Assembly: GCA_025594325.1 (NCBI GenBank)
Contig: JANHCV010000010.1
Location: 744,001 to 808,000 of the forward strand
Source of the DNA: Blastocladiella emersonii ATCC 22665
Taxonomy: Eukaryota > Fungi > Blastocladiomycota
DNA: 64,000 nt
Direction of reading: 5' to 3'
Part shown: positions 23,281 through 43,827 of the stretch, one piece after another
How the letters are laid out: each line of letters begins with the position of its first letter
How positions within the stretch are numbered: position 1 is the stretch's first letter
Program-made: the position numbers and the translations under genes
Notes under the pieces: generated by a model
Seen by the model: the letters and a program-made list of their open reading frames with translations, nothing else
What the model was told of the DNA's origin: nothing
Databases searched by the model: none

Positions 23281-24090
23281 CCGAGGCTTCTTGGATCACC
23301 CCACCCTCCTGTTTGTTTGCTCGTTACCTGTGATATATACACTTCTAGTCATGAACCGGTCCGCTGCTCACGTATGCCATGACGTGACCGACGGCCTGAA
23401 AGCTTGCGTGCACGCCAGACAAACGGCCATTTGCTAGAGTATCGCGATGCTTGTCGCATAAGGTGTGACGCAGCTCAAGCTGGTAAGACCAGCCGGTGCG
23501 AAAGGCGCAAGAGAGGCCAGAGCAGGCTTGCGAGACGCGTCGAGGTATCATGTGACCGCCACCGATCATGAACGACGCGTCCCCGACCCAAGGCCGGCTG
23601 AGTTGCAAGGTGTCTCCTCACCGATAAGCTCTTGGGAGTGACGTCGCAGGGTCCGAAATGCCACGTTAGCAAACGTTCCAACCCTCAACGAAGGAAGGCA
23701 GGTCGCGTTTCACCGAGAGAACGTTTCTTGGAGCGCGGCACTTTCTTAGAACACCTAATCGATTGCCCTCATTTCAGGCTGCATCGACCTGCATGCACGG
23801 TTGCCGAGTTGGGCCAAGGTTGGGCGTAGCGCGGCCACAGAGCGGGGAAGCGTGGGCCATGATGAAACGCGAGCGCGTGCTGCGCCACCATCCAGCGTCA
23901 CCGGGTCCTGCAAATGTCGAGCCCCTCACGGCAGGCTGGTCACCGTTGCACTGGATCCGGGATCGAGAAGGGGTCCGACTGCAGCAAACCAATCTCGCCG
24001 CTGAAAGGGCTTTCATCGAGTGCGTCGGCTTCTGCCGCCGTGTCGCGCCGAGCACTGCTCGAGAAGCTGTTCAAGAGGCAGACCCGAGCC

Positions 24091-24098
24091 CTATAAAG
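24091..24098 (+). promoter_or_regulatory. TATA box (CTATAAAG) upstream of the secreted-protein gene
   Basis: 92 bp upstream of ATG 24183; the same octamer precedes both Cys-rich peptide genes (46530, 47755). Confidence 0.6.
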
Positions 24099-24182
24099 AC
24101 CGGCCGCGCCCCTCGCTCTCTCGGCGTCTGATCCTCACCCAACAGCCCAAGCAGCCAAGCTCCCGCACCACTCATCGCCACC

Positions 24183-24599
24183 ATGAACGCCGTCGCCTTC
24201 CTCGCCGCCCTCGTCCTGGCCCTCGTCGCGACCGCCACCGCCGCCGCCGCCAAGGCGCCCTTCCCGGTCCCCGCCACGTACAAGGCCGGCACCATGCACT
24301 CGCTCACGTTCGCCGCCGACGGCAAGCTCACGGTGGCGTCCAGCGTGCGCTGCTTCCGCGCGCCGTGCCCCGAGGCCGGCGGCAAGGGCACCTGGTCGTA
24401 CGACGCCAAGGCCGACGCCATCACGATCCGCATGGAGGTCACGCCGACGTGGTCGGTCGCGCAGACGTGGACGTGCCCCGGCAAGTCGCGCGACATGAAC
24501 GTCTCGCACATGGGCGGGTGTAAGATCGTCAGCTTCGCGGGCACGCAGGCCGACAAGCTGCCCGTCCCCGCCGACGCCAACTCGTGGAACCGCCAGTAA
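24183..24599 (+). CDS. Small secreted protein (138 aa), copy 2
   Basis: Translation identical to 3367-3783. Confidence 0.85.
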   Translation: MNAVAFLAALVLALVATATAAAAKAPFPVPATYKAGTMHSLTFAADGKLTVASSVRCFRAPCPEAGGKGTWSYDAKADAITIRMEVTPTWSVAQTWTCPGKSRDMNVSHMGGCKIVSFAGTQADKLPVPADANSWNRQ

Positions 24600-24731
24600 G
24601 CTGCTGCCCGTCAGTCGTCCTGTGTGTTTGATTCCCTCCTGTTGTTCCTTCCCCTCCTGCCGTGTGACCCTTGCGTGTGTACCTCAGTGTGTGTGACCCC
24701 AAAATCAAAGTATACACATCAATCTTTAGCT

Positions 24732-27245
24732 CTACTCTTCATCATCACTACCATCAGCTTGAGGCGGGTCCCACGCCGCGGCCACGACATCGGCCCACGC
24801 CGCCGCGAGCCCGGGGACGCGCGGCACGAGCTTGGCCTCGAACTGCATCACCGCGTCGCTCGTGAGTCGGCGGCGCTCGATCAGCGTCTTGGCCACGAGC
24901 CGCAAACACTCCTGCGACACGGCCGTCTCCAAACACGCGCGGAAGACGCCGCGAAAGTGCGCCGTGTCCACGTCACCGTACGACGCGAGGTACCGGACCA
25001 GGTGGCGCGCGACCGACGCGGGCGACACGATGCTGCCGCCGTCGAGAGAGCCCTCGGGGAACATGGGCGCGAACCCGAGCACGAACTGCGGGCCCGCGTC
25101 CTCGTCGCGGTCGCCACCAACCCGCGCGAGCAGTGACGCAAACTCGGCCGGCGCGTGCTGCGCCGCGGCGCGCAGAAAATTGTCGGCGACGGCCATCTCG
25201 CGCTGCTTGGCGCGGGTCTTGTCCTTCCAGGTCGGGTACGTCGCGTTGCACACGACCTCGAGCGAGCGGACCGTCTTAGTGGTGACGGGCTCGGACATTG
25301 AGGCGACGGCGGCGGGCGCGCAGTACCCGAGGAGCGCGGTCCACGCCGGGATCGTGCGCGTGTCGGTCTGCAGCTCGCGGCCGTCCTCGCGCGGGACCTG
25401 CGACTCCCAGTTGCGCCCAGCGCACTCGGTCGCGACCGCCGCGAGAAACGACGAGTACAGGATCGACCACCGCGACAGCGATGCCGCCGCGTCGCCAGTC
25501 GTGGTGATGGCGTCGAGGACGTGCTTGGCGTGCGGTGACACGAGGACCGGGATCAGGCACGCGGCGAGCGCACCCGAGTACTGGTACGAAAAGGGCGCGT
25601 GGTCGTCGCCGAGCAGCTCGAGCAGGCGGGCCGCGACCTTGGTGCGCGCGTTCTTGGCGCCGAGGCCGAGCGACTCGAGGTGGTACCCGAACAGCCGGTC
25701 GCCGATCACGTCGAGCCGCTCGACGACGATCTCGGCTGCTCCGTCGGCACCACCGCAGTGCTCGACGGCGAGCGCGATGATGCGCGTGACGAGGCCGGGG
25801 CTCGCGCCGTACGGCTCCTCGACGGCGCGCAGCATCGCGTTGAGCAGCGGGCGGGCCGCCTCGACGCGACTTGGTGCGGGTCCCGTTGGTGAGGTACCGG
25901 CAGTCGGTGCGACAGAAACGAGGAGCATCGTGCGGACCTGCGTGGGCGGGAGACCGGCCGCGACGGCGCGCGTCACGAGCGGCGCCCAGTACGGAGGCGT
26001 GAGCAGCCACGGCCACGCGCGCGCGACCTTGATGACCGCCGCGACCTGGCCCTGCTCGACCCACTCGGCGAGCGCGGTGCAGAACAGGTGCCGCTGCCCA
26101 TCCCCCAAAAGCGGAGCGAGTCGGTCGCGGTCGCGGTCGTACGTCTCGAACACGCGCACGAGGGCCGCCCCGTCGGAGCGCAGCGGGTCGAGGTAGTAGC
26201 TGATCACGTACGAGTAGTGCGGCGGCCCGTGGCCGTGGTCGTTGATTGGGAGATCACCGCGCGGGTCCCAGCCGCGCCCGCGAAGCCAGTCGAGCACGCC
26301 CATGGTCTGCTCGAGCGGGTGCATGCTGATGTGGGTGAGGAAGCACGCGTACACGCACTCGAACTCGAGAACCCGCAAAACGACGGCATCGAAGCGAGGG
26401 TGACGCTTGGCGACGGCCTCGAGCGCGGGCAGGTTCATGTGCACGGCCGCCGAGATGGCGACGAGCGAGAGAAAGTCGACGCACACGTTCACGCCCGCGT
26501 TCTGAATGATCACCGCCGGTGGTCCCAGTGCGAGTTCCTCCACTTCGGCTGCGTCGTCGTCCGAGTCGTCGCCCTCGAGGTCCTCGAGGTCCTCGCGCAA
26601 GTCGGCCAGGTCCCTGGCGACCTCGGGCGTGTGGTCGGGGATCCACTCGAGCATGCGCTTGAGCGGGGCTCTCCCCTCGAGAGCGAGAGTGGGCAGCTTG
26701 CGCACCATGGCGGCGAGCGCCGAGTCGAGATCGGCCATGTTGCCGACCGCCTCGAGGTACAGCGCGAGCACGAGACCGTCGGTGAAGAAGCCCGTCACGG
26801 CGCCCGTTGGGCGGGGCGCCGCACCGTCGAGACTCGCGGCGGGCTCGGGCACGTCGTCCTCGTTGCTGCTCTCGCGGTCGTCGGGCTCCATGAGCGCCAC
26901 CTTGGCGAGCAGCTTGCGCTGGCGCTCGACGAGCGACGCCTTCGACTTGCTGGTGCGCAGGAACGAGCGGAGCAGCGCGTGGAACATGTCGCCGTTGAGG
27001 GGCGGGCGCGGCGGTGCGTCGGAGCGGCCGCGCAGTGCGATCGAGGCACAGGCACACCGCGCGAGCGGCGTCGACCACTCGGGGATCCGGCTCACGTCGA
27101 GCAGTTTGTCGGGCGCGGCGTCAACGAGCAGGTCGCCTAGTGCCTCGCCGACACGGTTGAACCAGACGAGTGGGAGCAGGAGACGGCTGGTCGTGGCGGC
27201 GTCGGCGAGGACGCGGGAGGCGAGCAGCCGCTTGGCCGACGGCGT
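24732..27245 (-). pseudogene. Second copy of the 865-aa gene, interrupted near codon 29 by the viral insertion (5' part at 43828-43916)
   Basis: Matches 637-3234 from TPSAKRLL onward; the N-terminal codons lie beyond the element. Confidence 0.9.
27241..27245 (+). repeat. 5-bp target-site duplication GGCGT (second copy 43828-43832)
   Basis: The empty site at 721-725 (ACGCC) has one copy; both element flanks carry it. Confidence 0.97.
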
Positions 27246-28065
27246 TGTCGTATCCCTTAAGGGATACGACATGGGCTGACCCACTGCCACTTGGGCTGAC
27301 CAATTGCTTACCCCGAGCGGTCGGCGACAGTCACTCGGGGTAACCACGTGAGACCCCGTTGCTTACCCCGGGTGGTTAATAAAATGTCGGATTCAAATGT
27401 CGTGTTCCCTTAGGGAACACGACACGCGGACGGAGGCCGAAGGCCGAAGCAGGTGGGCGGGAGGGTGGGTGGAAGGGAGGGGGCGAGCGGTCCAGGAGTG
27501 AGTCCCTGACCTGACCCCCGAGCCTGTCCCTAACCAACCCCTTGGGCTGACCATTGCTTACCCCGAGCGGTCGGCGGCGGCCGGCGAGCGCAGCGAGACG
27601 AAGAGCAGCGCAGCTGCGGCTACCCACTGACAGAGTTCCCTGGTCTGGTCCCTGAGCACGGCTGCGAGTCGATCTGCGAGTTGATCTGCAAGACAAGTCC
27701 GAGAGCAGATCCCTGAGCCTGTCCCTGACCAACCACTCAGGCTGACCATTGCTTACCCCGAGCGGTTGGCGGCGGCCGGCGAGCGCAGCGAGACGAAGAG
27801 CAGCGCAGCTGCGGCTACCCACTGACAGAGTTCCCTGGTCTGGTCCCTGAGCACAGCTGCAAGTCGATCTGTGAGCAGCCCCCGAGCCAGTCCCTGACCA
27901 CCTGCCGCAAGCAGCTGCTATGAAGCCACTCACTGTAAAGTTCCACTTTCATGGCATATTACGACAGAGTATATATATACACTACCCTTTTTTGCCATGA
28001 AAGTGGAACTTTCAAAGACAAGAGGTCAGGGTACGGGGGGTCAGGGCAGGGGAGCGTCTTAGCAG
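27246..28065 (+). repeat. Left terminal inverted repeat
   Basis: Reverse complement of 43009-43827 apart from 3 substitutions and one 1-bp indel noticed; contains two ~195-bp-period internal repeats. Confidence 0.95.
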
Positions 28066-28089
28066 GCAGCGTCTTAGCAGGCAGCGTCT

Positions 28090-28240
28090 TAGCAGGAAGG
28101 GGCATGCCAGGTCGGGGGTGCCGGGTCAAGGAGGGTCGGGGGTGCCAGGTCGGGGGTGCCGGGTCAAGGAGGGTCGGGGGTGCCAGGTCAGGGGTGCCAG
28201 GTTGGGGGTGCCGGGTCAAGGAGGGTCGGGGGTGCCCGTT
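28090..28240 (+). repeat. G-rich minisatellite (GGTCGGGGGTGCCR-type units)
   Basis: About eight G-tract units, all on one strand. Confidence 0.8.
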
Positions 28241-28304
28241 GCTACGTCATGCCAAGTGCGTTGAATGCGTTTGTCAATTTAAACTTTGTTGGACTACTGT
28301 AACT

Positions 28305-28457
28305 ATGCGAGGCTGTATCAAAGAGATCGTCCCCCTGCCCAAGCCGCCATGCGATCACTATGATGCTCCCAGCTGGGTCCATGACAATGAGCTGCTGTGG
28401 GTCCAAGTTGTGTACCCGTGCTGCGGGCACAAGTACACATACCGCCGGGTAGTCTGA
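28305..28457 (+). CDS. Small viral ORF (50 aa, Cys/His-containing)
   Basis: MRGCIKEIVP...YPCCGHKYTYRRVV; preceded by TGTTG-N8-TAAC motif. Confidence 0.5.
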   Translation: MRGCIKEIVPLPKPPCDHYDAPSWVHDNELLWVQVVYPCCGHKYTYRRVV

Positions 28458-28717
28458 GAGCGACCAGTAAAGGCTTCAAGGTAGCTAACCAAGTTAACTT
28501 GAAGGATCTATTCAAAGCAGACAGTGTACACAACCTTGGCACCTGGCAGGGCCACGTCGCGGATGGCCGTGTAGTTGGCTGTCGACTGGGGGCCCGGATG
28601 GCCAGTCCAAGGGATGCTCGTGGAAGGTGCGCGGGGCGTTGATGCAGTAGAGCCAGTATTCATTGTCCTGTGTCTTACTATGCCTTCGCAGAAAGAATTT
28701 AAAGCACATGTCGTTGC

Positions 28718-28819
28718 TTACTCTACGGCGTGGAATACTTTGCTTGTGTACCTGACAATGGCCAGGTTGGCTACCAGGATCAGGGCGTTGGTGGCAACAA
28801 GGAGCGTCTCGAGGATCAT
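28718..28819 (-). CDS. Small hydrophobic viral peptide (33 aa)
   Basis: MILETLLVATNALILVANLAIVRYTSKVFHAVE; preceded by TGTTG-N8-TAAAC motif. Confidence 0.55.
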   Translation of the reverse strand: MILETLLVATNALILVANLAIVRYTSKVFHAVE

Positions 28820-28850
28820 GTTTACAGTACAACAACAATTAAAGTCAACG

Positions 28851-29594
28851 TCAGATGAACGCGAGCTCGACGTAGAAGGGTTGGCCAAGAAAGTCGACAG
28901 AGCGCAGGTTCTTGTCTACCACGTCAATGTCAATACAGTCAATCTGCTGGGCCTGTCCCTGCGCGTCAAAGCGAAAGTAGTCACCCATGTGTGGTCGATG
29001 CTCGAACCAGCTGCCAAAGGGTTGCGTGACGTGGATGCTACAAAGTACGCCGTTGTCTTGTGGGTACGCGCTGTACATGTTTTCCGCAAGCCGGGTGCCA
29101 AGGTTGCGCGAGTAGACGTGAAGCAGGTTGATGGGCGAGATGTTGACCAGCGCCGACGCGTACTGGACCTTGCTGTAGCCATACGCTCCAACAAAGCCCA
29201 TGTGGACGTTCAGCGACGCCGTCCCTGTTCCAATTGTAAAGTCGACCGTGTCGTTGGCCAGGCGCATCTTCTGGGTAGTCGAGTCAACCTGGACGTCCCA
29301 TGTGCCCTGCCAGAGGTACGCTGAGGGCGCGTTGTTGAGCAGGCTCTTGAGCGTGGCCGTGAACGTCTCGACCGTGTAGTTGCCATCAGGGACGGTGATG
29401 GTGCCCGGGAACGTCAGCGCGCCACGGCTCTGGGTCAGGTACACTTTGTTGGCCTTGGAGTTGACCGTGTGCCAGCTGTTGCAGAGGTACGCCGAGTTGA
29501 CCTTGACGCCGCGCACGGACAGGGGTCGTGGTAGGTACAGGATGCCGTTCTTGAGGTCGCGGCTGCAGATGGTCAGCGTCTTGTACTCGGACAT
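28851..29594 (-). CDS. Minor capsid protein (penton, single jelly roll)
   Basis: SRD N-terminus, ITVPDGNYT, MGF, and C-terminal IDIDVVDKNLRSVDFLGQPFYVELAF match the PLV/virophage penton pattern; adjacent to MCP. Confidence 0.8.
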   Translation of the reverse strand: MSEYKTLTICSRDLKNGILYLPRPLSVRGVKVNSAYLCNSWHTVNSKANKVYLTQSRGALTFPGTITVPDGNYTVETFTATLKSLLNNAPSAYLWQGTWDVQVDSTTQKMRLANDTVDFTIGTGTASLNVHMGFVGAYGYSKVQYASALVNISPINLLHVYSRNLGTRLAENMYSAYPQDNGVLCSIHVTQPFGSWFEHRPHMGDYFRFDAQGQAQQIDCIDIDVVDKNLRSVDFLGQPFYVELAFI

Positions 29595-29612
29595 TTAAAC
29601 AAAGACAACAAT

Positions 29613-29879
29613 TTATTGTACAGCTGTCCCCGTGTCGTCAGCGTCTGCCTCAAAGATCTCGCTCGTCGGTCGGTTGTACCAGGTGTGAATGTCTTGGGCA
29701 AGGTCCACGCCCTTGGTCACCATCTGCGCAATGGAGCTCACGGCGGGGTTGTGCGACCGCTCAAAGAACTTGGACACGGTCTTGACGCCTTTGAGGACGG
29801 TTGGCATGTGTTTGTTGACAAAGGACCCAACCTGGCCGAGCACATTGCTAAAGTTGGTCCAGAGGTTACGGAAGATCAT
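29613..29879 (-). CDS. Small amphipathic-helix protein, possibly membrane-lytic (protein VI-like)
   Basis: FRNLWTNFSNVLGQVGSFVNK amphipathic pattern; lies between MCP and penton. Confidence 0.6.
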   Translation of the reverse strand: MIFRNLWTNFSNVLGQVGSFVNKHMPTVLKGVKTVSKFFERSHNPAVSSIAQMVTKGVDLAQDIHTWYNRPTSEIFEADADDTGTAVQ

Positions 29880-29921
29880 GGCGGGGTTTAACTCTACGCA
29901 AGAAAAGAAAGGACAGGGCCG

Positions 29922-31142
29922 TTACTTGTAGATGTTGATCTCGCCGGTTGGCAGGAACTCGTAGACCACGTCGATGCCAATGAAGGCGTCCACGCGCTGG
30001 TTCGGGGCCACGCTTGAAGTCAGGATCACCTGCATGTCCACGGCCTGGCTCTTGCAAGACTTGTCGCCGCTGACCACGGTGCGACTTGACTCAAGGTCAC
30101 GGCCAACAACAAAGGTACCCTTGGCCAGCGCGTTGAACTTGTCGACTGTGAGGCCAGCGCCAATGACGTGGCCATGGAAGGCATTGGTCAGCTCAACGAA
30201 CGCCTCAGACGCGTAGTCGTCACATCGGATGGGTCGCTGAGGGAAGAGTCGGCCGGCCACGCTGAACTGGTACAATGTAATGGTCTTGGCACGAAGGAAC
30301 GAGTCCTTGGCATTGTTGTTGAGCACGGCATTGTTGCGGAACAACAGCAGGATGTCTTTCTGTGAGGCCGAGCGGTCCGAGATGTTGAGCGTTGAGTTGG
30401 GCACCGAGTAGTTCAGGAAGTGGTGGTTGTAGGTCGTGCCAAAGAGCTTGAGGCCCTGCTTCTTGAAGGCCGCGTCCATGACCGCGATCTGCTGGTCGTT
30501 GAGCTTGATCAGGTCCGAGACGATGCAGACGTCCTTGACTGTGTAGCCCGGGATGACATTGTTCTTGACAATGCAGGCGTCACTGCCAGGTGCGAGGGTG
30601 AACTCGACGCAGATGCCGCCCGTGTACTTCATTGGCAGGTGCTTCTGGTTTGCCAGCAGGGCCGACTTGATGGGCAGCATGTACCGGTGCAGCCTGGACA
30701 AGACGGCGAACTTGTCTGCGCCGGACGCAAAGTAGCCCTGTGCCACGCCGAGACACGAGTCCTTGAGGTACTGGGGGACCATCACGTCGGCCTCGATGCG
30801 CTGACGCAGGTTGTAGTACGGGAGCTCTTCGAGTAGGGCACCAGACGCGCTGTAGATGCGGACACGGTCAATGACGCTGAAGATACCATCGCAGAAAGCG
30901 ACGTTGGCGTCCGTGGTCTTGGCCGAGAACTGCAGGAAAGTACAGTGCGTGACCATCATGTTGTCGCGCGGCGGGAGCAGGACGCTGATGCTGTTGCCAG
31001 GAGCAAACTCGGGGCCGCCCTGAGCTGTGAACTGGACGGTCTGGCGCTCGGCATAGACGGACTCCTTGGGCAGGTTGAACGACATCTCGGGAGGGAGAGT
31101 CTTGGACAGGACCTGCGAGAACTGGGCGTTGGTACTGGACAT
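29922..31142 (-). CDS. Major capsid protein (double jelly roll, PLV-type)
   Basis: 406 aa, beta-rich; EFAPGNSISVLLP, SVIDRVRI, LPMKYTGGICVEFTLAP, YQFSVAGRLFPQRPI, FVVGRDLE; next to ATPase and penton. Confidence 0.85.
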   Translation of the reverse strand: MSSTNAQFSQVLSKTLPPEMSFNLPKESVYAERQTVQFTAQGGPEFAPGNSISVLLPPRDNMMVTHCTFLQFSAKTTDANVAFCDGIFSVIDRVRIYSASGALLEELPYYNLRQRIEADVMVPQYLKDSCLGVAQGYFASGADKFAVLSRLHRYMLPIKSALLANQKHLPMKYTGGICVEFTLAPGSDACIVKNNVIPGYTVKDVCIVSDLIKLNDQQIAVMDAAFKKQGLKLFGTTYNHHFLNYSVPNSTLNISDRSASQKDILLLFRNNAVLNNNAKDSFLRAKTITLYQFSVAGRLFPQRPIRCDDYASEAFVELTNAFHGHVIGAGLTVDKFNALAKGTFVVGRDLESSRTVVSGDKSCKSQAVDMQVILTSSVAPNQRVDAFIGIDVVYEFLPTGEINIYK

Positions 31143-31182
31143 GGTTTAGTTTAGGACTCGGCAACAAAAAAAAGTCAAGAGT

Positions 31183-31980
31183 CTACTGCTTCACGATCCA
31201 CTCGCTGAAGCTGTCTACGAGCCGGTACTTGGGCGGGTTCTGGTTGTTGACGCCCAGGAAGCGTTGCTTCGTGTTGCCAGTACGCGTGTCAAAGAGCTGT
31301 TCAATGATGGCCTCAAACTCCTTGAGGTCGAACTGCGACCCAATCTCCTTGTGCAGCGTCTGGACCTCGGTCTTGTCATAGATTGGGTAGACGACGCTGT
31401 AGCTGCAATTGATGCGCAGAGTCTTGGGCAGGGCACACCACTGCTGGACGCCAATGATGCAGCTGATCTTCAAGTGCCGCGAGTTGCACAGAAAGTTGGT
31501 CAGCGTTTGGTGGCTCAGCAGCTTGAGCCCAAGCACGTTGTCAATGATCAGCAGCTGGTCCTGGAGCGCCTTCTTGCCAGACTCTTCGAATGTCTTGGTC
31601 AGGTCCTGGCGCATCTTGAGCAGGGTCGGGATGAACTGCTCGGGGTCCGTGACAATGCACCCTGGCTTGATCTTGAGCCGGTCCGGGTCGCGCTCCTGGG
31701 GGTCCAGCACGTTGCGCTCCTTCTTGGGCGGTCGCAGGATCGGTTGACTGGCAATGTACTCGTACTTGTCGTTGGCGTGGAACGTCGGGTTAAAGACCCA
31801 GATGTTGTCGAACTGGCCCTTGTAAAAGTGCGGGAAGCAGACCATGTTTGCGATCAGCGTCGACTTGCCCTGACCCTTGGCGCCAATGACGTTCATGGTG
31901 AACGGGTGCTTGGGGATCAGCAGCGGCTCGCTGTCATCGTTGCGCGTAAAGCCGTTGTCAATGGCAACAATGTCGTACAT
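31183..31980 (-). CDS. A32/FtsK-family genome packaging ATPase
   Basis: Walker A GAKGQGKST; Walker B LLIIDN (usually DD); SRHLKIS...Q...LPKTLRIN motif. Confidence 0.9.
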   Translation of the reverse strand: MYDIVAIDNGFTRNDDSEPLLIPKHPFTMNVIGAKGQGKSTLIANMVCFPHFYKGQFDNIWVFNPTFHANDKYEYIASQPILRPPKKERNVLDPQERDPDRLKIKPGCIVTDPEQFIPTLLKMRQDLTKTFEESGKKALQDQLLIIDNVLGLKLLSHQTLTNFLCNSRHLKISCIIGVQQWCALPKTLRINCSYSVVYPIYDKTEVQTLHKEIGSQFDLKEFEAIIEQLFDTRTGNTKQRFLGVNNQNPPKYRLVDSFSEWIVKQ

Positions 31981-32006
31981 TTAAAGACTGCCAACAAAAA
32001 AGGGCG

Positions 32007-33722: not shown

Positions 33723-33799
33723 GATGGTTACTGTATGGACCGAAAATAAAACGTCCCCCTGTCGGTACCTTTTTCCCCGTGGCAGGTGCCTTTTGTCCC

Positions 33800-34051
33800 T
33801 CAGACGGTGCTATTTGCCCCCTGGTCCCGGCGCTTGGCGTTGAGTGCCTTGTAGATCCGGATCTTGACCCGCTCTGCCCGCGCTGCCTCGTTGTCGACGT
33901 GCGTGTACCGGTTGGCCTTGTGGTCGCGCTTCCATAGCCACTTGGCCTTGTCCTCGTCGCTCTTGCTGTACCAGCTGCTTGGCACGGGCATGGTCCCGGC
34001 GAGGTGCTCCCGCCACTCGTCCAGGCTCAGGTCATGGTCGCTGGAAATCAT
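33800..34051 (-). CDS. Small basic viral protein (83 aa)
   Basis: Compact ORF divergent from the fibre gene and filling the intergenic gap. Confidence 0.55.
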   Translation of the reverse strand: MISSDHDLSLDEWREHLAGTMPVPSSWYSKSDEDKAKWLWKRDHKANRYTHVDNEAARAERVKIRIYKALNAKRRDQGANSTV

Positions 34052-34071
34052 TCTGTTGCTTAAGGTTAAAC

Positions 34072-36015
34072 ATGGTCAAGAATATCTTTAACGTCTCAAG
34101 TACTGCGTCTCCGACTGTGTCTACCACGGGGGTCCCGGACGTGTCCAAGGCCTACGTTGACGCAGCCATCAGTGCCGTGTACGCCACGGTTGGCACACCT
34201 GTTGCTGGCCCTGGCGTGGCAGTCTCAGGGACCACTGTGTCGGCCAAGGTCGACAACCAGACCCTTGGCGTGGGCGCAGCAGGGCTCTATGTCAAGTCGG
34301 TTGGCACGGCACAGCTGCTCCCGGCCAGCGTCACGGCCGACAAGGTCGCCACGATTACAGCAGGGCAGGTCACTGGCAAGCTCGTCGATGCTCAGCTGGA
34401 CACTGTGTCTGCGTCCAAGGTCGTGGGCGTGCTCAGTGCGTCCAACCTCCCAGCCGTCGGAACCTCGGTCCTGGCAGACGGCTCAGTGACAGATGCCAAG
34501 GTTGCGTCTGTGTCCGGGTCCAAGCTCGTGGCAGGCACAGTCGGGACCTCGGTCCTGGCAGACGGCTCAGTGACTGATGCCAAGGTCGCGTCCATGTCCG
34601 GGTCCAAGCTCGTGGCAGGCACGGTCGGCACAGCGGCTCTTGTTGACCTGGCAGTCACAGATGCCAAGGTCGCGTCCGTGTCTGGGTCCAAGCTCGTTGC
34701 AGGGACTATTGGGACGGGAGCCCTGGCAGACGGTGCCGTATCCAACGCCAAGGTGGCAGCTGGCATCGACGGGTCCAAGCTGGCAGCGGGCACGGTCGGC
34801 TCCCTGGTCCTGGCAGACGCGGCCGTGACCAACGCCAAGCTGGCAACTGGCATCGATGGGGGCAAGCTCAACGTTGGGTCCATTGGAACAGCCCACCTGG
34901 CAGCAGGCGCAGTCACGGACGCCAAGGTTGCGGACGTGTCGGCGGTCAAGCTCACTGGGATCCTCAACCCTGCCCGCATCGCCGACGGGACCCTGACCAA
35001 CGCCAAGCTGGCATCTGGCATTGACTCGGCCAAGCTTGCAGGGACCATTGACCTGGCACGACTCCCCGACGTCTCGGCCAAGGTCACGGCGGTGAGCGCA
35101 GCCTCGGTCGCTGGCACGCTCCCCCAGTCCACCCTTGGGCTTGGCGCTGCCTTTGCCTTTGCAAATACGACGGACAGTTTGACATCAAGCACTGGAGCAG
35201 TCACCATTGCTGGTGGTCTTGGAGTTGGCAAGCAACTGACTGTGCCCAACGTCCTGGTCCGGAATGCCACAAGCGCGAACCTTGTCTTTGACTCGGCTGC
35301 CAATACATTGACGTACGTCGACTTTAAGCAGGCAGGCGTACTGCGAAGCAACCTGGCATGCACAGCGGCAGGTAACATTGAGATTGCGTCTGCGACCACG
35401 GGCGGGGTCTCCCTTGTGGCAGGTGGCGGCAATGTGGTCGTGGGCTCGGCGACGCTTGGCACAGAAAGGTTCCGCGTCAATGGCACTGGTCGCTTCACAG
35501 GGCAGCTCACCCTTGACCTCGCTCCAGTGGCAGGCACCGACGCGGCAAACAAGGCGTACGTTGACTCGCGGTCTGGCACGACCCGGTACGTCGCTCAGGC
35601 CGAGCACCGCTCTACAAACGGAGTGACCACGGGCGGCAAGATCATTGGCGGCACAGCATCGACGGGCCCGGCCACCTTTGCGTTCCAGTCCACGGCGGGC
35701 GCGTTCACGTCTGTGATCAATGGATGCGTCAAACCCCCTGTCAGTGGCTACTACCTCGTCCATGCAAAGGGCTACTACGCAAACGGCGCGCTCCCTGGAG
35801 CCCACACTGTGAACTTTGCGCTGTACAATATGACGGACATGATTGCAGTGTCGCTTGTCACCGGGTGCCGCGCTGAAGGCAACGTCCAGTTCCTTCAGTT
35901 CTCGAGCATTGAGTACCTTGACGCGGCCAAGAGCTACTCTTTCATCTGGATCCCGTCGGTCGCAGTTGCCAACGACTGCCAGGTCATCATTCAAAGCCAC
36001 TGGACCCTGCTCTAA
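34072..36015 (+). CDS. Fibre/spike protein with 28-aa repeats
   Basis: VGTSVLADGSVTDAKVASVSGSKLVAGT repeats (84-bp period); DAANKAYVD motif typical of phage-type fibres. Confidence 0.8.
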   Translation: MVKNIFNVSSTASPTVSTTGVPDVSKAYVDAAISAVYATVGTPVAGPGVAVSGTTVSAKVDNQTLGVGAAGLYVKSVGTAQLLPASVTADKVATITAGQVTGKLVDAQLDTVSASKVVGVLSASNLPAVGTSVLADGSVTDAKVASVSGSKLVAGTVGTSVLADGSVTDAKVASMSGSKLVAGTVGTAALVDLAVTDAKVASVSGSKLVAGTIGTGALADGAVSNAKVAAGIDGSKLAAGTVGSLVLADAAVTNAKLATGIDGGKLNVGSIGTAHLAAGAVTDAKVADVSAVKLTGILNPARIADGTLTNAKLASGIDSAKLAGTIDLARLPDVSAKVTAVSAASVAGTLPQSTLGLGAAFAFANTTDSLTSSTGAVTIAGGLGVGKQLTVPNVLVRNATSANLVFDSAANTLTYVDFKQAGVLRSNLACTAAGNIEIASATTGGVSLVAGGGNVVVGSATLGTERFRVNGTGRFTGQLTLDLAPVAGTDAANKAYVDSRSGTTRYVAQAEHRSTNGVTTGGKIIGGTASTGPATFAFQSTAGAFTSVINGCVKPPVSGYYLVHAKGYYANGALPGAHTVNFALYNMTDMIAVSLVTGCRAEGNVQFLQFSSIEYLDAAKSYSFIWIPSVAVANDCQVIIQSHWTLL

Positions 36016-37124
36016 AGCCCGCGGTCCCACTTTTCTTGGACTCGGACTGGGACGCGCCTGACCCGGGTCGAGGGCTCCCTTGGCGTGACTGGGGTGCGCG
36101 CAACAGGGAGCCTTGGAAGACCTGGACCTACACGCTGCCTTGTTGGCGGGTCCTGGGTCGCTGTGACTGGCTGGACGTCGCTTCGAGGGTAGAAGCCCTT
36201 GAGGCCTTGGACCTTGTAGCTCGGATTGCTCACGCCCGACCCCTTGCGCACGACCTGGACCTGGCTCACAGTTGTCGACCAGACCGGCTTCCCCTTGGCC
36301 TCCATGGCAGTCTTGTACGGCTCGCGGACTCGGACCTGGGTCCCTACCTTCAACAACGCGCTCAGAGGGTCGCCCTCGGGCTTGCCCTTGGCAGCTCGGA
36401 TCTCCTTGAGCTCTTGCTTGGCCGTTTCGCGGGGCATGTCATGGAACGCGTTGGGTGCCTTGCTTGTGGCCCTCGACTTGCTGCTGTTGATCACAGATTC
36501 AATGGTCTCGAGGTGCTTGGGCCAGTCGTTGTTGCCTGGGATGGACAGCCACGGTGTGAGCATCCGGCGGATGGTCCCGTTCATGCGTTCAACAACACCT
36601 TGACCGTATGGCACTCCTGCCTTGCCCTTGATGTGCTTGGCCTCGGTCCCGGCCTCTATGCCAAAGAACTCGGTCCCATTGTCCGTCTGGATCGTGGCAG
36701 GTGCAAGGCTGTGCTTGGCGACCACGCTGGACCATGCTTCCCGCGTCTTGTCCTTGGTCTTGATGGGTTGGAGGTAGACGCAGCGGCTCGCCAGGTCGAC
36801 ACACGTGAGAATGTAACGGAAGCCCTTGTACGTACCGTTTTCGCCCATGTCAATGAGGTTGAGCTGAAAGTTGCGGCCAGGACTTGTTGAGTTGATGCTT
36901 CGAATGTCTCGGCGCTTCTGAGGTGCGCGCTTGTACTGCTGCCACACGGACTGGTTGTTGAGCCACCGCTCGAGCTGGGCGCGGTAGATGTGCTTCCCTG
37001 TGTGCTCTTGGTCGACAATGTCAAAGAGCCAACGGATGCCAACCCCAACATGGCCGCGTTTGTAGTACAAGTCTTTCAGGTACTCGGTCTGTTCAGCAGT
37101 CAAAGGTTCTTCGTGGGCATACAT
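36012..37124 (-). CDS. Retroviral-type (rve) integrase, Polinton/Maverick-like; first catalytic Asp appears replaced by Asn
   Basis: LKDLYY...WLNNQ N-terminus; FQLNLIDM, YILTCVD, IQTDNGTEF, VVERMNGTIRR; C-terminal VGTQVRV SH3-like region. Confidence 0.92.
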   Translation of the reverse strand: MYAHEEPLTAEQTEYLKDLYYKRGHVGVGIRWLFDIVDQEHTGKHIYRAQLERWLNNQSVWQQYKRAPQKRRDIRSINSTSPGRNFQLNLIDMGENGTYKGFRYILTCVDLASRCVYLQPIKTKDKTREAWSSVVAKHSLAPATIQTDNGTEFFGIEAGTEAKHIKGKAGVPYGQGVVERMNGTIRRMLTPWLSIPGNNDWPKHLETIESVINSSKSRATSKAPNAFHDMPRETAKQELKEIRAAKGKPEGDPLSALLKVGTQVRVREPYKTAMEAKGKPVWSTTVSQVQVVRKGSGVSNPSYKVQGLKGFYPRSDVQPVTATQDPPTRQRVGPGLPRLPVARTPVTPREPSTRVRRVPVRVQEKWDRGL

Positions 37125-37152
37125 TGTATTAACAAAGGTGGAGACAAAAGGA

Positions 37153-38280
37153 TTACTGAGGCGTCATGTAGTAGGTCAGCGCAACGGGGACGCTGTGACC
37201 CATCTCGTGCGCGCGTTTGGCAATAGCTTGCTGCGCAGCAAAGTTCTCACTGGTGGAGATACGGCGGATCACTGCCACGCCGCCATCCTCAAAGCCGACC
37301 GTCTTTGCAGCCCAACTAATCGACGTACACCAGGTGCTGCTAACCCTCTTGCGGAGCGTGGTGTCCTTGAGCTCCTCGAGGGTGTAGTTGTTGAAGACAA
37401 AGTCATGACCTTCGGCGAGACGCTGGGCGAGGATACGCTTGAGAGCGGCGGCGACCTTGGGCTCACTAACTGTGTGCGAGAAGTTGTAGCCACAGCCCTC
37501 TGTCTTGACAATGACATCGCCGGCCAGAATCTGGGTCTCTGGGTCGTAGTACGGGTACCCAGTGGTTGGCTTCGTGGTCAGGAACGCAGGGTCGGAGCGC
37601 ACCGCACTCACAACTTGGAGGTACAGACGCAGGAGCCCCGTGCCCGAGCCCTTTGCATCAACAATAGCGGCGCAAATGGCGTCACGGCTTGGGAGCGCAC
37701 CAGACTCGAGTTCCTTGCGCGCGTTGCGGAAGTCGGCAGCGTCCTGCTTCTTGGCCTCTGTGTACTTGGCCCCGAGTTCGGTCCACCCGTTCCAGGTGCA
37801 GTACTTGGCCAGGGCCTTGAGCGTCTCGACCTGCAGACCCTGGACGTTCTTGGACCCCTTGATCGCGCGGTACGTGGCCACGGCCTTGGACACGGCATTG
37901 ACGTTGTGGATATCCATGCCCGACTTGGCAAATGCAAGGAGCACGCAAGTTGTCTTGGTCTTGTCCGTGTCGCTCAGCGTGGCCTGCTCCCCGTTCTTGT
38001 CCACCACAGGCGCGTTGACACATGCCTCGATGGCATCCTCAGTCAGCTCAGCAAACTTGACCTTGGGGGTGTCGACTTCCACGGGAGTGACTTGCTGATC
38101 AGCGCCGTGATCTGGGTCGTGTGACTCGATGGCCTTGAGTCGCGCGTCCAAGTCCTTGAAGCGCTTGTTGATTGACCCAAACACGGGCTGGAGCTTGTCC
38201 ATGACTTGCTGCACCACGTCTGCGGCAACATGCTGAGCGAGGGCAACGGCGACCTGGGAGGCAACAGACTCGAGCGACAT
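37153..38280 (-). CDS. Tyrosine recombinase-family protein
   Basis: Ordered candidate catalytic set: R (SAVRSD), K (IVKT), R (VIRR), H (MGHS), Y (LTYY) at the C-terminus. Confidence 0.7.
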   Translation of the reverse strand: MSLESVASQVAVALAQHVAADVVQQVMDKLQPVFGSINKRFKDLDARLKAIESHDPDHGADQQVTPVEVDTPKVKFAELTEDAIEACVNAPVVDKNGEQATLSDTDKTKTTCVLLAFAKSGMDIHNVNAVSKAVATYRAIKGSKNVQGLQVETLKALAKYCTWNGWTELGAKYTEAKKQDAADFRNARKELESGALPSRDAICAAIVDAKGSGTGLLRLYLQVVSAVRSDPAFLTTKPTTGYPYYDPETQILAGDVIVKTEGCGYNFSHTVSEPKVAAALKRILAQRLAEGHDFVFNNYTLEELKDTTLRKRVSSTWCTSISWAAKTVGFEDGGVAVIRRISTSENFAAQQAIAKRAHEMGHSVPVALTYYMTPQ

Positions 38281-38405: not shown

Positions 38406-39720
38406 CCCAGGTCACGGTTTGAGAGGTTCGTGACCTCGGCCTCTGCTGGTGCCCAAGTCGGGGTCATGGGGGGGGGGGGTGGAGGTCCGGTTCTTCGCCG
38501 TCAGTCGCGTCCCAGGTCACGGTTTGAGCGGATCGTGACCTCGGCCTCGACTGGCTCCCAAGTTGAGCTCATGGGGGGTTCGTGACCTCGGCCTCTGCTG
38601 GTGCACAAGTCGGGGTCATGGGGGGTGGAGGTCCGGTTCTTCGCCATCAGTCGCGTCCCAGGTCACGGTTTGAGCGGATCGTGACCTCGGCCTCGACTGG
38701 CTCCCAAGTTGAGCTCATGGGGGGTTTGTGACCTCGGCCTCTGCTGGCGCCCAAGTCGGGGTCATGGGGGGTGGAGGTCCGGTTCTTCGCACTCAGTCGT
38801 GTCCCAGGTCACAGTTTGAGCGGATCGTGACCTCGGCCTCGACTGGCTCCCAAGTTGAGCTCATGGGGGGTTCGTGACCTCGGCCTCTGCTGGCGCCCAA
38901 GTCGGGGTCATGGGGGGTGGAGGTCCGGTTCTTCGCCCTCAGTTGTGTCCCAGGTCACGGTTTGAGCGGATCGTGACCTCGGCCTCGACTGGCTCCCAAG
39001 TTGGGCTCATGGGGGGTTTGTGACCTCGGCCTCTGCTGGCGCCCAAGTCGGGGTCATGGGGGGGGGAGGCCCGGTTCTTCGCCGTCAGTCGTGTCCCAGG
39101 TCACAGTTTGAGCGGATCGTGACCTCGGACCCTACTGGCTCCCAAGTTGGGCTCCTGGGGGGGTCTGTGACTTTGCCCTCAGTCGCTGCCCAGGTCACGG
39201 TTTGAGAGGTTCGTGACCTGAGACGCGATTGGCTCCCAAGTTGGGCTCCTGGGGGGTCCGTGACTTTGCCCTCAGTTGCTGCCCAGGTCACGGTTTGAGC
39301 GGGCCGTGACCTCGGCCTCTGCTGGCTCCCAAGTTGGGCTCCTGGGGGGTCCGTGACTTTGCCCTCAGTCGCTGCCCAGGTCACGGTTTGAGCGGGCCGT
39401 GACCTCGGCCTCTGCTGGCTCCCAAGTTTGGGCTCCTGGGGGGTCCGTGACTTTGCCCTCAGTCGCTGCCCAGGTCACGGTTCAAGGATCGTGACCTGAG
39501 ACGCGATTGGCTCCCAAGTTGGGCTCCTGGGGGTCTGTGACTTTGCCCTCAGTCGCTGCCCAGGTCACGGTTCAAGGATCGTGACCTCGGACCCTACTGG
39601 CTCCCAAGTTGGGCTCCTGGGGGGTCCGTGACTTTGCCCTCAGTCGCTGCCCAGGTCACGGTTCAAGGATTGTGACATCGGCCTCAACTGGCTCCCAAGT
39701 CGGGGTCATGGGGGAGGTCG
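38406..39720 (+). repeat. Tandem array of hairpin-containing units (4 x 146 bp, then ~6 x 90-94 bp, plus partial end units)
   Basis: CCCAGGTCAC starts at 38406, 38511, 38657, 38803, 38949, 39095, 39189, 39282, 39375, 39469, 39559, 39650. Confidence 0.95.
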
Positions 39721-39888
39721 TGTCTGGGTCAGGGACAGGTCACGCAAGGGCAGCCGGGCCTGGGTCAGGACAGTGGCAAGTCATGGGCCATGCCAACAAG
39801 GGCTCCCGGGTCACAGCCATTAGCGCTAAATCCTGCGCGTTTAAACGCACCTGCCCTGTCACCTTTTCTGTTACCTCATCATAACAAC

Positions 39889-42800
39889 ATGGTCTGCGAG
39901 ACGGTCCCCGACAATGCAGGTGGCAAATCCTTTGGTCTCCAGTGGTACCGTGGCAAGGACGGCGGCGGCAGCGACATGGGCCCTCAGCGCAAGCTCTTGT
40001 CCGAGCTGCAAGACGACGAGACGGTCATCAAGCGCCTCATCAACAAGGGCGTCGACAACCATGGCGAACCCAAGGCGGCGCACTATTTTGCCAAGGTCAA
40101 GACAGTGGGCCTGGCTGGGCTCCTCAACAAGAACCGCTGCATCCAGGAGATGGTCCACCCCGAGCGCCTGTCCAAGGTCTACTTTGACATTGACTGCCCG
40201 GGCAACAACAAGGACGTGACGCTGGACGTCATCAAGAAGGTCATCCTGGCCCAGTTCCCCGGCGCCAACCTCCAGGTCTGCGGCTACGAGACGGACCTCA
40301 AAAAGTCGTGGCACATTGTCCTCAGCAACTACACGGCCACGCTCAAGGACATGTCGTTCCTGAAGCTGTTCTGCAGCCACCCCGACCACGTCAAGCTCGG
40401 CTTTGACGCCAGCGTGTACAGCAAGCACCGCTTCATGAAGTGCATCAACCAGTCCAAGCCCAAGAAGACACCCGGCACGTTCAAGGCAGGGAACAAGGAC
40501 CGCCTGTCCAAGCATCTGATCCAGTACGACTTTGACCCCAACTGCGTGCCGATCTCGGACCTGTCCTTTGTCGAGTTTGTGTCTGCCAAGGCCAAGGCAG
40601 CGCGGGCCAAGCGCCGCAAGGGTCGCTTTGACTACGACCTCGACATCCCCAAGTTCAAGGACGTGCAGATCGACCCCGACTTCTTCTACTACAACGCCAC
40701 GCCACTCGAGATCCTCCACAACCTCCCTGTCAGCCCCGAGAACGCGTTCCACAACAACGTGACCTGGCTGATCATGACCTGGGCCATGCGCAAGGGTGTC
40801 ACCTTTGAACAGTTCTGGGCGTGGACGTCGCAGCAGGACAACTCGGCTCAGCGCTTTGCCAAGTACCAGCAGCGGTGGGGCGAGATTGCCAGCAACTGCG
40901 ACTACCAGGTGCCAGACAAGTTCATCAAGGCCATCTTCTACAAGCGGTTCCGGGACGCGTTCAAGTCCAAGGCCATGATCAAGTTTGAGCAGTCGCTCCA
41001 GGTCCCCGCCGACGTGACCGTCCCCAACCAGTTCCTGAGCTGCAACGACATTACCGAGGCCAAGTTCAACGTGCTGGCCACGGGCATGGGCTCCAACAAG
41101 ACAGGCGCTGTTTGCGACTACATTGCCAAGTACCCAGACGCGCGAGTGGTCTGGATCACACCTCGCATCACCCTGGCCCACAACACCGAGGGTCGAGCCC
41201 GCGAACAGAAGCTTGGCTTTGTCAACTACCGCAGCATCAAGGACAAGAAGACACTGGGGGATCACAAGCGACTCATTGTCTCGCCGTGCTCGCTGCACTA
41301 CTTGACCGAGCCCTACAACATTGTTGTGGTGGACGAGTCCGAGACAGTCCTCAAGATGTTCCAGGACGCCAAGTTGCACACAACCACCATTCGCAACAAC
41401 CTCGAGGCCAACCTCAAGGCCTTCAAGACGCTGTGCGAGCACAAGGGCAGCAAGGGTATCTTCATGGACGCGTTTGTCACGAACCTGACTATGGACGTCC
41501 TCCGCTCCTTTACTGTTGAGCACAACATCAAGACCATACTCCATGGTAAGATCAAGGTGATCACGAACACGCTTGGCAAGGAGTTTGAGCCGCGCAAGAT
41601 GAGCCTCATCACCGACAACAAGGACAAGGACAAGGAGAAGTCCGCCGAAGACATCATGGAGAGCAACATCATTGCCGACCTCAAGGCCAACAAGAAGCTC
41701 TACCTCTTCCTCCCACGACCATGCAAGAAGTCAACCAAGTGGTCGGTGCAGACCTTTGGCGAGTACCTTGAGCGGGTCTTTGCCGAGGAGACGTGGAAGA
41801 TTGGCAAGCAGATCAAGCTCTACCACGGCGACCGCCCCAACCACGAGGACAAGGAACTCATTGACCCCAACTCTGTGTGGGGCGACAATACGGTCCGTAT
41901 AGTCATCGCCAACCTCAAGATCACCATTGGCGTCAACTTCTCGACAAAGAACAAGTTTGACAAGGTGTACGCGCGCTACGAGTCCTGGGTCCCTGCCCGC
42001 AACTTCTTCCAGGCAATCTACCGCGTGCGCTACCCCATTGACAACGAGATCGTGTTCATGATCAGCAATGGTTGCCACGGCGCGTACATGAACAAGTCCC
42101 AGGTTATTAACTCAGACTTGGTCGGCAAACTTCACCAGGCCATTGTCAAGAACACAGATCTCGAGAACGAGATGGCCGCTGTGACCTCGTGCCTCAAGGT
42201 CTTTGACACCTTCCGCAAGGTTGCCAACATTGTCATGGACGACTCCCCCGAGTACTACTACAAGGCGCACCCCGAGATTGAGGATGTCATGACATCGGGC
42301 TGGTCCTTTGACTGGGCAAACGTCCAGCTTCCATCCAAGGAGACCCTGCGCGACCACTGCAAGGGTACACTCAAGGACCCGGACTGGACCATCTGCCTCT
42401 CCGTCCGCAAGGCCTTCTTCATCCGCAAGTTCAAGGGTCTGAGCGAGAACAACATGGAGGCCATCTGGGACGACAACGCCGAGCGCTTCATGGAACGTAT
42501 CCAGTACTTTTACACCAAGGACAAGGCCCACGTCCTGCACAAGCTCCTTGACCACAACGGCATGGACCTCCGCACGTCCGAGGAGTTCAACATCCAGGCC
42601 ACCATCCCCGCCACGTTTGAAGCAGACATCCACAAGTACTTCAAGAAGCTTGGGTATTACAAGTGTGACACAGCAACAGTCCTAAACAGGCTTCTCAGCA
42701 CTTACTTTAACAAGTGCCTTGCTGTGCCAGACAAGGATGAACCCCGGGTCTCAGTACGCGGCAAGAAGTACACTAACCTGAAGTGGACGGAAGACATCAA

Positions 42801-42909
42801 CTACTTTGTCATGTACAAGACCTGGACCACTGCCCCGGCCGAGTCGGCGCCATTTGTCCTGGAGCTGGACCTGGACGAGGTCTACGACGAGCTCATCAAC
42901 GAGCCCTAA
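39889..42909 (+). CDS. AEP primase-polymerase fused to a UL9-like superfamily-2 helicase
   Basis: AEP motifs YFDID, KKSWHI, DASVYSKHRFMK..QSK; PriCT-like segment; helicase GMGSNKT, VVVDESE, FMDA, ITIGVNF, FQAIYRVR. Confidence 0.85.
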   Translation: MVCETVPDNAGGKSFGLQWYRGKDGGGSDMGPQRKLLSELQDDETVIKRLINKGVDNHGEPKAAHYFAKVKTVGLAGLLNKNRCIQEMVHPERLSKVYFDIDCPGNNKDVTLDVIKKVILAQFPGANLQVCGYETDLKKSWHIVLSNYTATLKDMSFLKLFCSHPDHVKLGFDASVYSKHRFMKCINQSKPKKTPGTFKAGNKDRLSKHLIQYDFDPNCVPISDLSFVEFVSAKAKAARAKRRKGRFDYDLDIPKFKDVQIDPDFFYYNATPLEILHNLPVSPENAFHNNVTWLIMTWAMRKGVTFEQFWAWTSQQDNSAQRFAKYQQRWGEIASNCDYQVPDKFIKAIFYKRFRDAFKSKAMIKFEQSLQVPADVTVPNQFLSCNDITEAKFNVLATGMGSNKTGAVCDYIAKYPDARVVWITPRITLAHNTEGRAREQKLGFVNYRSIKDKKTLGDHKRLIVSPCSLHYLTEPYNIVVVDESETVLKMFQDAKLHTTTIRNNLEANLKAFKTLCEHKGSKGIFMDAFVTNLTMDVLRSFTVEHNIKTILHGKIKVITNTLGKEFEPRKMSLITDNKDKDKEKSAEDIMESNIIADLKANKKLYLFLPRPCKKSTKWSVQTFGEYLERVFAEETWKIGKQIKLYHGDRPNHEDKELIDPNSVWGDNTVRIVIANLKITIGVNFSTKNKFDKVYARYESWVPARNFFQAIYRVRYPIDNEIVFMISNGCHGAYMNKSQVINSDLVGKLHQAIVKNTDLENEMAAVTSCLKVFDTFRKVANIVMDDSPEYYYKAHPEIEDVMTSGWSFDWANVQLPSKETLRDHCKGTLKDPDWTICLSVRKAFFIRKFKGLSENNMEAIWDDNAERFMERIQYFYTKDKAHVLHKLLDHNGMDLRTSEEFNIQATIPATFEADIHKYFKKLGYYKCDTATVLNRLLSTYFNKCLAVPDKDEPRVSVRGKKYTNLKWTEDINYFVMYKTWTTAPAESAPFVLELDLDEVYDELINEP

Positions 42910-43008: not shown

Positions 43009-43827
43009 CTGCTAAGACGCTCCCCTGCCCTGACCCCCGTACCCTGACCTCTTGTCTTTGAAAGTTCCACTTTCATGGCAAAAAAGGGTAGTGTATATAT
43101 ATACTCTGTCGTAATATGCCATGAAAGTGGAACTTTACAGTGAGTGGCTTCATAGCAGCTGCTTGCGGCAGGTGGTCAGGGACTGGCTCGGGGGCTGCTC
43201 ACAGATCGACTTGCAGCTGTGCTCAGGGACCAGACCAGGGAACTCTGTCAGTGGGTAGCCGCAGCTGCGCTGCTCTTCGTCTCGCTGCGCTCGCCGGCCG
43301 CCGCCGACCGCTCGGGGTAAGCAATGGTCAGCCTGAGTGGTTGGTCAGGGACAGGCTCAGGGATCTGCTCTCGGACTTGTCTTGCAGATCAACTCGCAGA
43401 TCGACTCGCAGCCGTGCTCAGGGACCAGACCAGGGAACTCTGTCAGTGGGTAGCCGCAGCTGCGCTGCTCTTCGTCTCGCTGCGCTCGCCGGCCGCCGCC
43501 GACCGCTCGGGGTAAGCAATGGTCAGCCCAAGGGGTTGGTTAGGGACGGGCTCGGGGGTCAGGTCAGGGACTCACTCCTGGACCGCTCGCCCCCTCCCTT
43601 CCACCCACCCTCCCGCCCACCTGCTTCGGCCTTCGGCCTCCGTCCGCGTGTCGTGTTCCCTAAGGGAACACGACATTTGAATCCAACATTTTATTAACCA
43701 CCCGGGGTAAGCAACGGGGTCTCACGTGGTTACCCCGAGTGACTGTCGCCGACCGCTCGGGGTAAGCAATTGGTCAGCCCAAGTGGCAGTGGGTCAGCCC
43801 ATGTCGTATCCCTTAAGGGATACGACA
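43009..43827 (-). repeat. Right terminal inverted repeat
   Basis: Reverse complement of 27246-28065. Confidence 0.95.

Follow-up and report, generated by a model that had tools for sequence, protein, structure and literature searches.

A 76-bp dyad in the terminal repeats of an integrated polinton-like virus is a probable replication origin for the virus's own primase-helicase

How does a small integrated virus that carries no polymerase gene besides an AEP primase begin to copy its DNA, and is the starting place marked in its genome? The window (the whole 64,000-nucleotide stretch of DNA analyzed here) contains such an element, and a 76-bp dyad lies in each of its terminal inverted repeats (TIRs). 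The original prediction took this dyad for the site that a UL9-like helicase-primase of the element binds and unwinds. On the basis of comparative sequence analysis, we consider it probable (roughly 65%) that the dyad is the element's origin of DNA replication and is read by its own primase-helicase. The observed basis for this reading is the geometry of the site, the symmetry retained among copies of the element, the UL9-like fold of a protein whose primase motifs are intact, and the co-occurrence and adjacency of the site with the helicase gene.

The element extends from position 27246 to 43827 (16,582 bp; 16.6 kb), has the termini TG...CA, and carries the features of an integrated polinton-like virus (PLV), namely, TIRs, a target duplication, an integrase, and an A32-like packaging ATPase (Table 1). 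Its two 794-bp TIRs differ from each other at three positions. The corresponding empty site is found at 721-725, in an inverted duplicate of the host region (1-4328) without the virus. Seven protein clusters named Blastocladiella emersonii are 58 to 95% identical to the helicase, and further matching clusters are named Allomyces, Borealophlyctis, and chytrid MELD virus. Because of these names, we infer that the element is a multicopy PLV of a zoosporic fungus. Giant viruses occur in zoosporic fungi (PMC13533422) and are possible helper candidates.

Table 1. Features of the element and of its insertion site, in window coordinates
Feature	Position	Strand	Remarks
5-bp target-site duplication	left 27241..27245; right 43828-43832	+ (left)	
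Left terminal inverted repeat	27246..28039	+	794 bp; begins TG
Perfect terminal palindrome	27246..27271; mirror 43802-43827		26 bp
Second perfect palindrome	27398-27424; mirror 43649-43675		27 bp
76-bp dyad, likely origin, left copy	27937..28012		arms 27937-27956 and 27993-28012
Possible minor capsid protein	28851..29594	-	position only; no family match
Probable major capsid protein, polinton-like type	29922..31142	-	size, position, profile matches
A32-like packaging ATPase	31183..31980	-	PF04665, E 1.5e-11
Fibre-like repeat protein	34072..36015	+	
rve-type integrase	36012..37124	-	PF00665, E 4e-5, below curated cut-off
Tyrosine recombinase	37153..38280	-	pattern R231, K259, R, H362, Y371
GC-rich tandem array	38425..39722		periods 47/93/146 bp; between divergent recombinase and helicase starts
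AEP primase + UL9-like superfamily 2 (SF2) helicase + helical/winged-helix-like C-terminal domain	39889..42909	+	about 1006 aa; proposed origin reader
Right terminal inverted repeat	43034..43827	-	794 bp; terminates CA
76-bp dyad, likely origin, right copy	43061..43136		identical mirror in right TIR

The surroundings of the element also showed several features. A host region of at least 4.3 kb is duplicated in inverted orientation at 99 to 100% identity (1-4328 versus 23638-27245 plus 43828-44552), with the virus in one copy; this may reflect a recent duplication in inverted orientation or the joining of two haplotypes during assembly. Two identical copies of a host gene are located at 24732-27272 (minus strand) and 643-3234 (plus strand), and the element is inserted 26 codons into one of them. 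An ATG within the terminal palindrome of the element reopens the interrupted frame, and the restarted product (846 aa) equals the intact 863-aa copy beyond nine element-encoded residues. A terminal-palindrome ATG facing outward is likewise offered by the other end of the element. The host stretch at 4329-10000 has a lower GC content and contains duplicated orphan genes (5526-6896 and 9224-9667; 4525-5340 and 7183-8106), which had no match among the families scanned.

The profile of the tyrosine recombinase matched recombinases of virophage contigs and gave four matches against 1.8 billion representatives. With the capsid profile, the matches were 430- to 490-aa genes in other small-virus contigs, and nothing in the virophage capsid set was matched. 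Sequence searches of solved structures with the helicase, recombinase, and capsid profiles returned nothing useful, the probable capsid profile having no match there, and a PHROGs search of the element yielded only weak transposase, terminase, and fibre rows. Among the open reading frames of the element, we found no ICP8, UL5/8/52, or viral polymerase genes.

What distinguishes the dyad from the DNA around it? The sequence check agreed with the structure first described and with its mirroring in the right TIR: the two 20-bp arms are exact reverse complements of each other and enclose a spacer of 36 bp, which is 72% A+T. The dyad sits 27 bp inside the inner edge of each TIR, and the right copy starts 152 bp past the helicase stop codon. 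A self-complementary 12-bp TA core (27969-27980) is centered exactly on the dyad axis (27974/27975). The AT-rich site in otherwise GC-rich DNA was also borne out: with a GC content of 34%, compared to mostly 55 to 76% in the window, the two copies are the lowest-GC 76-mers of the 64 kb. They are also its longest perfect-arm hairpins (gap of 0 to 60), and the chance expectation of a perfect 20-bp arm pair with such a gap in the window is ∼2e-5. When folded as single-stranded DNA, the dyad had a z of −7.0, and 0 of 200 shuffles were equally stable. A 5-bp inverted repeat lies within each arm, at the outer end, and there is no separate third box. Viral contigs contained 0 exact matches to the 20-bp arm, a locus search with the single protein gave no match, and a scan for bacterial promoters and terminators found nothing at the dyad. 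Three weak miRNA-precursor rows from Rfam were far below the gathering score and were read as reflecting hairpin shape only. An open reading frame that starts inside the left arm (27951-28457) is likely spurious because it lacks a family match and runs over tandem repeats.

Other repeats occur in and near the TIRs. Each TIR holds two related perfect palindromes of 26 to 27 bp, one at the extreme end, which may serve in hairpin priming or as targets of the tyrosine recombinase. Within the TIR, 27501-27875 is a 195-bp tandem duplication, of which contigs of other copies skip one unit, and short G-rich tandem arrays are found just inside the TIR at 28053-28236. The array between the recombinase and helicase genes covers 1.3 kb and is built from a 47-bp unit with higher periods of 93 and 146 bp and short internal dyads.

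We then asked about the protein proposed to read the dyad. The predicted start of its gene at 39889 was confirmed, and its AEP motifs and SF2 motifs are both intact. The name UL9-like proved apt for its structure model (pLDDT 82.7), for which the best fold match among solved structures was HSV-1 OBP (9hgi; E 1.4e-15). The helicase part aligned to 9hgi with a Z of 24.1 over 366 residues, just 1.3 above DEAD-box proteins. Among predicted structures, the best matches were giant-virus AEP-UL9 fusions. The family PF02399 was present on 8 of 17 homologues and absent from the window's own protein. In UL9, residues 547 to 821 are the origin-binding domain (PMC12543377). The C-terminal domain of the element's protein, folded alone, had no Foldseek match at E ≤ 0.001, and its top rows were weak winged-helix matches. 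Its alignment to 9hgi 547-821 (Z 4.3; rmsd 4.5; 141 residues) is weak and within the range of unrelated folds; this row was in the top three and was the sole one among the 50 matches listed to cover the globular part rather than one long helix. The RVKNL recognition motif is absent from the primase-helicase and its alignment. In six relatives (L034 to L037, L042, and L050), the helicase frame ends early and the last part is a separate small open reading frame, the same in all six, possibly representing a programmed frameshift or a split gene.

If the arms are bound by a protein, is their symmetry retained when their letters change? Other copies of the element were read as short assembled contigs from four sequencing runs, all from one sample that may be the window's own source. 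In a variant contig of a related copy, positions 27950-27954 and 27995-27999 were all altered, and 5 of 5 pairs were still complementary; one matching base was inserted at each outer arm end, and the spacer flanks were altered without compensation. A second variant had 27947 T>A and the partner change 28002 A>T on separate contigs (depths of 18 and 17.8); an extra base was listed for its left arm and not for its right arm. No change was listed in the central 27969-27980 at a share of at least 4% in the contigs of other copies. Thus, arm letters drift across copies while symmetry, spacing, and core are retained. The five paired changes may stem from a single arm-to-arm copying event rather than from selection, and since each variant may be one such event, these data show maintenance and not selection. 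Taken further, the same explanation would have the dyad functionless, its symmetry generated by arm-to-arm copying, and replication starting by hairpin priming at the terminal 26-bp palindromes. Such palindromes are present in the element and have been proposed as primers for non-pPolB elements (10.64898/2026.07.28.741278), and a third variant was strongly diverged between 27926 and 28008. We regard this explanation as highly improbable. The listed letters of the strongly diverged copy still open with an A-run, G, and T, as the arm does, and the span (∼67 to 80 bp), center, and position of the dyad recur beside helicases that are just 24 to 31% identical to the window's, a recurrence that neutral copying does not predict.

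That recurrence emerged from a survey of relatives. Profile searches identified 57 loci with this helicase, which formed 33 clusters at 70% identity; two with less than 600 bp of flank were left out, and 31 had usable flanks. To call sites, we scanned the DNA up to 10 kb from the query gene and applied a fixed rule that required arms of at least 25 bits, a span of 50 to 92, and a TA-type center. The same dyad build, with other arm sequences, was found in 20 of the 31 clusters, as the expectation of conservation in related elements had it, and within 600 bp of the helicase gene in 17 of 31. Of all sites, 25 of 32 were within this distance, compared to 10.3 expected from intergenic length. Spans were mostly 67 to 80 bp. 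Of the 20 listed sites, 7 had an AAAG-G/T motif that started 34 to 36 bp from the axis, in most cases on both arms and otherwise on one; in the window it starts 38 bp from the axis on both arms. The window's arms are otherwise little like those of relatives (best local score, 22). Relaxing the rule, a step taken with the data already in view, brought the clusters with a site to 23 of 31. Among the eight without one, three have contigs that end within 114 bp of the gene, one has a strong dyad with another core, and four (L008, L019/L058, L051, and L059) are clear negatives with the helicase and long flanks. An SF2-like gene at L104 also had no site in 5.5 kb.

Site carriers include both virophages and PLVs. 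The helicases of L030, with a PLV-type capsid, and L031, with a virophage capsid, are 62% identical, and the arms of their sites are near-identical. More generally, arm likeness increased with helicase identity (Mantel rho 0.30; p 0.003; n = 28), although kinship among the genomes overstates independence in this value. At the loci nearest to the window's on the helicase tree (L001 and L006), the site lies 31 and 40 bp past the stop. Some genomes (L022, L046, and L094) have three to five copies, more than an origin needs. At the extreme end of the L003 contig, 600 bp past the helicase gene, a 56-bp perfect palindrome (L003:13313-13368) is possibly a hairpin end.

Many of the relatives' sites begin 1 to 50 bp after the helicase stop, a location at which a transcription signal could also be expected. 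The dyad might be a TATA-type promoter or a terminator hairpin as in giant-virus parasites, in which hairpin terminators and late promoters are found on the flanks of the genes of transpovirons and virophages (PMC7031253). A TATA is present at the center, and both copies in the window lie downstream of genes pointing at them. We nevertheless find this quite unlikely, based on how rarely the site accompanies other genes. Under the relaxed rule, it was found at the 3' ends of 13 of 24 helicase genes, compared to 4 of 175 other genes and 1 of 13 recombinase genes, and at the 5' ends of 9 of 30 helicase genes, compared to 8 of 182 other genes and 0 of 13 recombinase genes. A terminator of the giant-virus hairpin-rule type would be present at most genes' 3' ends. 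In addition, the site occurs at both ends of the helicase gene and in either orientation. Hairpins that follow the mimivirus rule have a short loop, and the loop here (17 to 36 nt) is longer. The dyad thus tracks this helicase gene and not the recombinase or generic gene ends, as an initiator-origin pair predicts.

Does the association hold in genomes selected without regard to the helicase? A control set of 80 loci was fetched by recombinase, blind to the helicase, and the whole records were then searched for the helicase. We left out 44 loci that were less than 90% complete, were unscored, had no sequence, or belonged to a multicontig bin; three of these had a site (L093, with an AEP-SF2-like gene, and the partial contigs L085 and L087). 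L079 was counted as helicase positive on local HMM and Pfam evidence, though the whole-record search missed it. Among near-complete genomes, with similar lengths scanned, the site was present in 8 of 11 helicase-positive genomes compared to 1 of 25 helicase-negative genomes (Fisher p 4e-5, which overstates independence because the genomes are related). Five of the 11 helicase-positive contigs were already in the helicase set; in the six new contigs alone, 5 had the site. One genome, L096, had one site and no SF2 helicase detected.

These frequencies also bear on the possibility that the dyad is a target of the tyrosine recombinase, either an FRT/lox-like inversion site or a telomere-resolution site making hairpin ends. 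The element does carry a recombinase with the full catalytic pattern in addition to its rve integrase, the symmetry of the dyad is centered on a small palindrome, and one virophage, L024, retains sites and recombinase after loss of the SF2 helicase. However, 24 of 25 near-complete genomes with a recombinase and no helicase lacked the site in the DNA scanned, only 4 of 50 sites in the recombinase loci (duplicates included) were near the recombinase gene, and 1 of 26 recombinase gene ends carried a site. No strand-change joint or flipped spacer was seen among the matches listed, in contigs that cannot show absence. Sites of the lox, FRT, att, and tel types have a spacer of 6 to 8 bp between the binding arms, a length that the 36-bp spacer far exceeds. 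A recombinase target is therefore, in our view, very unlikely.

Many of the helicase-negative genomes carry SF3 helicases. Dyads were found close to the SF3 helicase gene in 7 of 12 such loci; most of these dyads were wider, and most lacked a TATA center. SF3/D5 primase-helicase genes are flanked by such wider dyads (∼90 bp or more) at L063 (11773-11869 and 14518-14614) and also at L109, L130, L137, and L062. In L024, a D5 helicase is found in place of the SF2 helicase. This virophage has a wide dyad adjoining the D5 helicase gene and keeps two sites like those of its close relative L022 (features at L024:5789-5997 and 17519-17613). We read the two sites as relics of a replicase swap; they are equally open to another role.

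The tie between gene and site could also arise if the dyad, bound by the same helicase, marks where a mobile replicase cassette ends or serves as an operator for autoregulation, and is not where replication of the genome starts. In at least eight loci (L001, L004, L007, L018, L022, L030, L031, and L047), sites are found on both sides of the helicase gene, and site and gene occur together with both capsid types. A preprint describes repeats bracketing replicase modules and suggests that AEP and PolA replicases move alone (10.64898/2026.10.13.758929). In the window, on the other hand, no copy precedes the gene start, and the opposite TIR places the second copy 12 kb away from the gene; the extra copies in L022, L046, and L094 lie far from the gene. 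We consider a boundary or operator without origin function unlikely. Origin and mobility roles are compatible: possibly, and we say so tentatively, the AEP-UL9 gene and its flanking TA-centered palindromes form a self-contained cassette that swaps between virophages and PLVs. Such a cassette would supply a one-protein initiator-helicase-primase with its own origin and might preserve the ancestral form of UL9/oriS initiation, the origin-binding domain included.

Kindred dyads beside the same kind of helicase gene in many distant small viruses make the dyad a likely start site for copying, and the proposed role as the origin of a UL9-like helicase-primase finds its support on this comparative basis. 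How might initiation proceed? The C-terminal domain would anchor protein molecules to the pair of inverted arms, and the central TA run would melt, as its composition and the example of HSV oriS suggest. The SF2 motor would then unwind the DNA, and priming at the same place would fall to the AEP domain fused to it, so that one protein may do the work of UL9 and of the separate herpes helicase-primase. With one dyad near each end, synthesis could start from either end of the linear genome. Since the element lacks a polymerase gene besides the AEP, elongation would fall to the AEP itself or to a polymerase borrowed from the host or a helper virus.

For viruses without a protein-primed polymerase, most PLV replication strategies being described as unknown (10.64898/2026.07.28.741278), the dyad offers a candidate origin of defined extent (76 bp), and the primase-helicase offers a single candidate for the initiator. 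The host is culturable, non-pathogenic, and fungus-like, and natural arm variants in the same genome allow specificity swaps. If our reading is correct, UL9-type origin recognition reaches far beyond herpesviruses, and the element would represent a minimal eukaryotic replicon of one protein and one site. In the literature searched, we found no paper that presents palindromes of this class as origins; subscription papers and the supplements and figures of preprints could hold one.

Parts of this picture are already in print, namely, AEP-SF2 replicases, repeat-bracketed replicase modules, and terminal palindromes (10.64898/2026.10.13.758929, 10.64898/2026.07.28.741278, PMC8502044). The element resembles the chytrid MELD viruses and Yellowstone Lake virophage 7 in its S2H helicase family, rve integrase, packaging ATPase, and TIRs; the passages on these viruses name the helicase and describe no origin or palindrome (PMC8502044). 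The S2H of Powellomyces MELD virus 2 matches the window's helicase at 30% identity. Like the window's element, the Halocafeteria virophages and PLVs include non-pPolB, rve-integrase elements with palindromes in their TIRs (10.64898/2026.07.28.741278). Those palindromes are at the extreme ends, and the search settings limited their gaps to 10 nt (10.64898/2026.07.28.741278), whereas the window's dyad lies away from the termini, its arms are 36 bp apart, and its occurrence follows that of the helicase gene. In the Polisuviricotina, AEP-SF2 fusions are a known minority and repeats can bracket replicase genes (10.64898/2026.10.13.758929); the text on replicase modules does not define this palindrome class, connect it with SF2 helicases, or give it the role of an origin (10.64898/2026.10.13.758929).

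The comparison with herpesvirus oriS, drawn in the original prediction, held for geometry and not for box sequence. As in HSV-1 oriS and oriL, inverted arms surround an AT-rich center, two copies lie inside inverted repeats (PMC12543377), and the proposed partner is an SF2 helicase that matches UL9 best among solved folds. The arms differ from those of HSV-1 in being perfect repeats of 20 bp, and they do not contain the Box 1 octamer (Table 1 of PMC12543377) in its exact form. Box 1 can be matched in the window's arm only with a one-base deletion (chance of ∼0.011 per 20-mer, calculated after the fact), and a one-edit match was found in 1 of 20 relatives' sites. No third box that would pair with Box 1, as in the oriS* hairpin, was identified in the element. 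The protein lacks RVKNL and has its primase fused to the helicase, and the genome around it is that of a 16.6-kb integrating virus of a fungus-like host, without ICP8, UL5/8/52, or polymerase genes. The dyad is thus not a member of the oriS class, for which box sequence, RVKNL, and cofactors fail, but by analogy it may well work with its primase-helicase as HSV oriS does with UL9.
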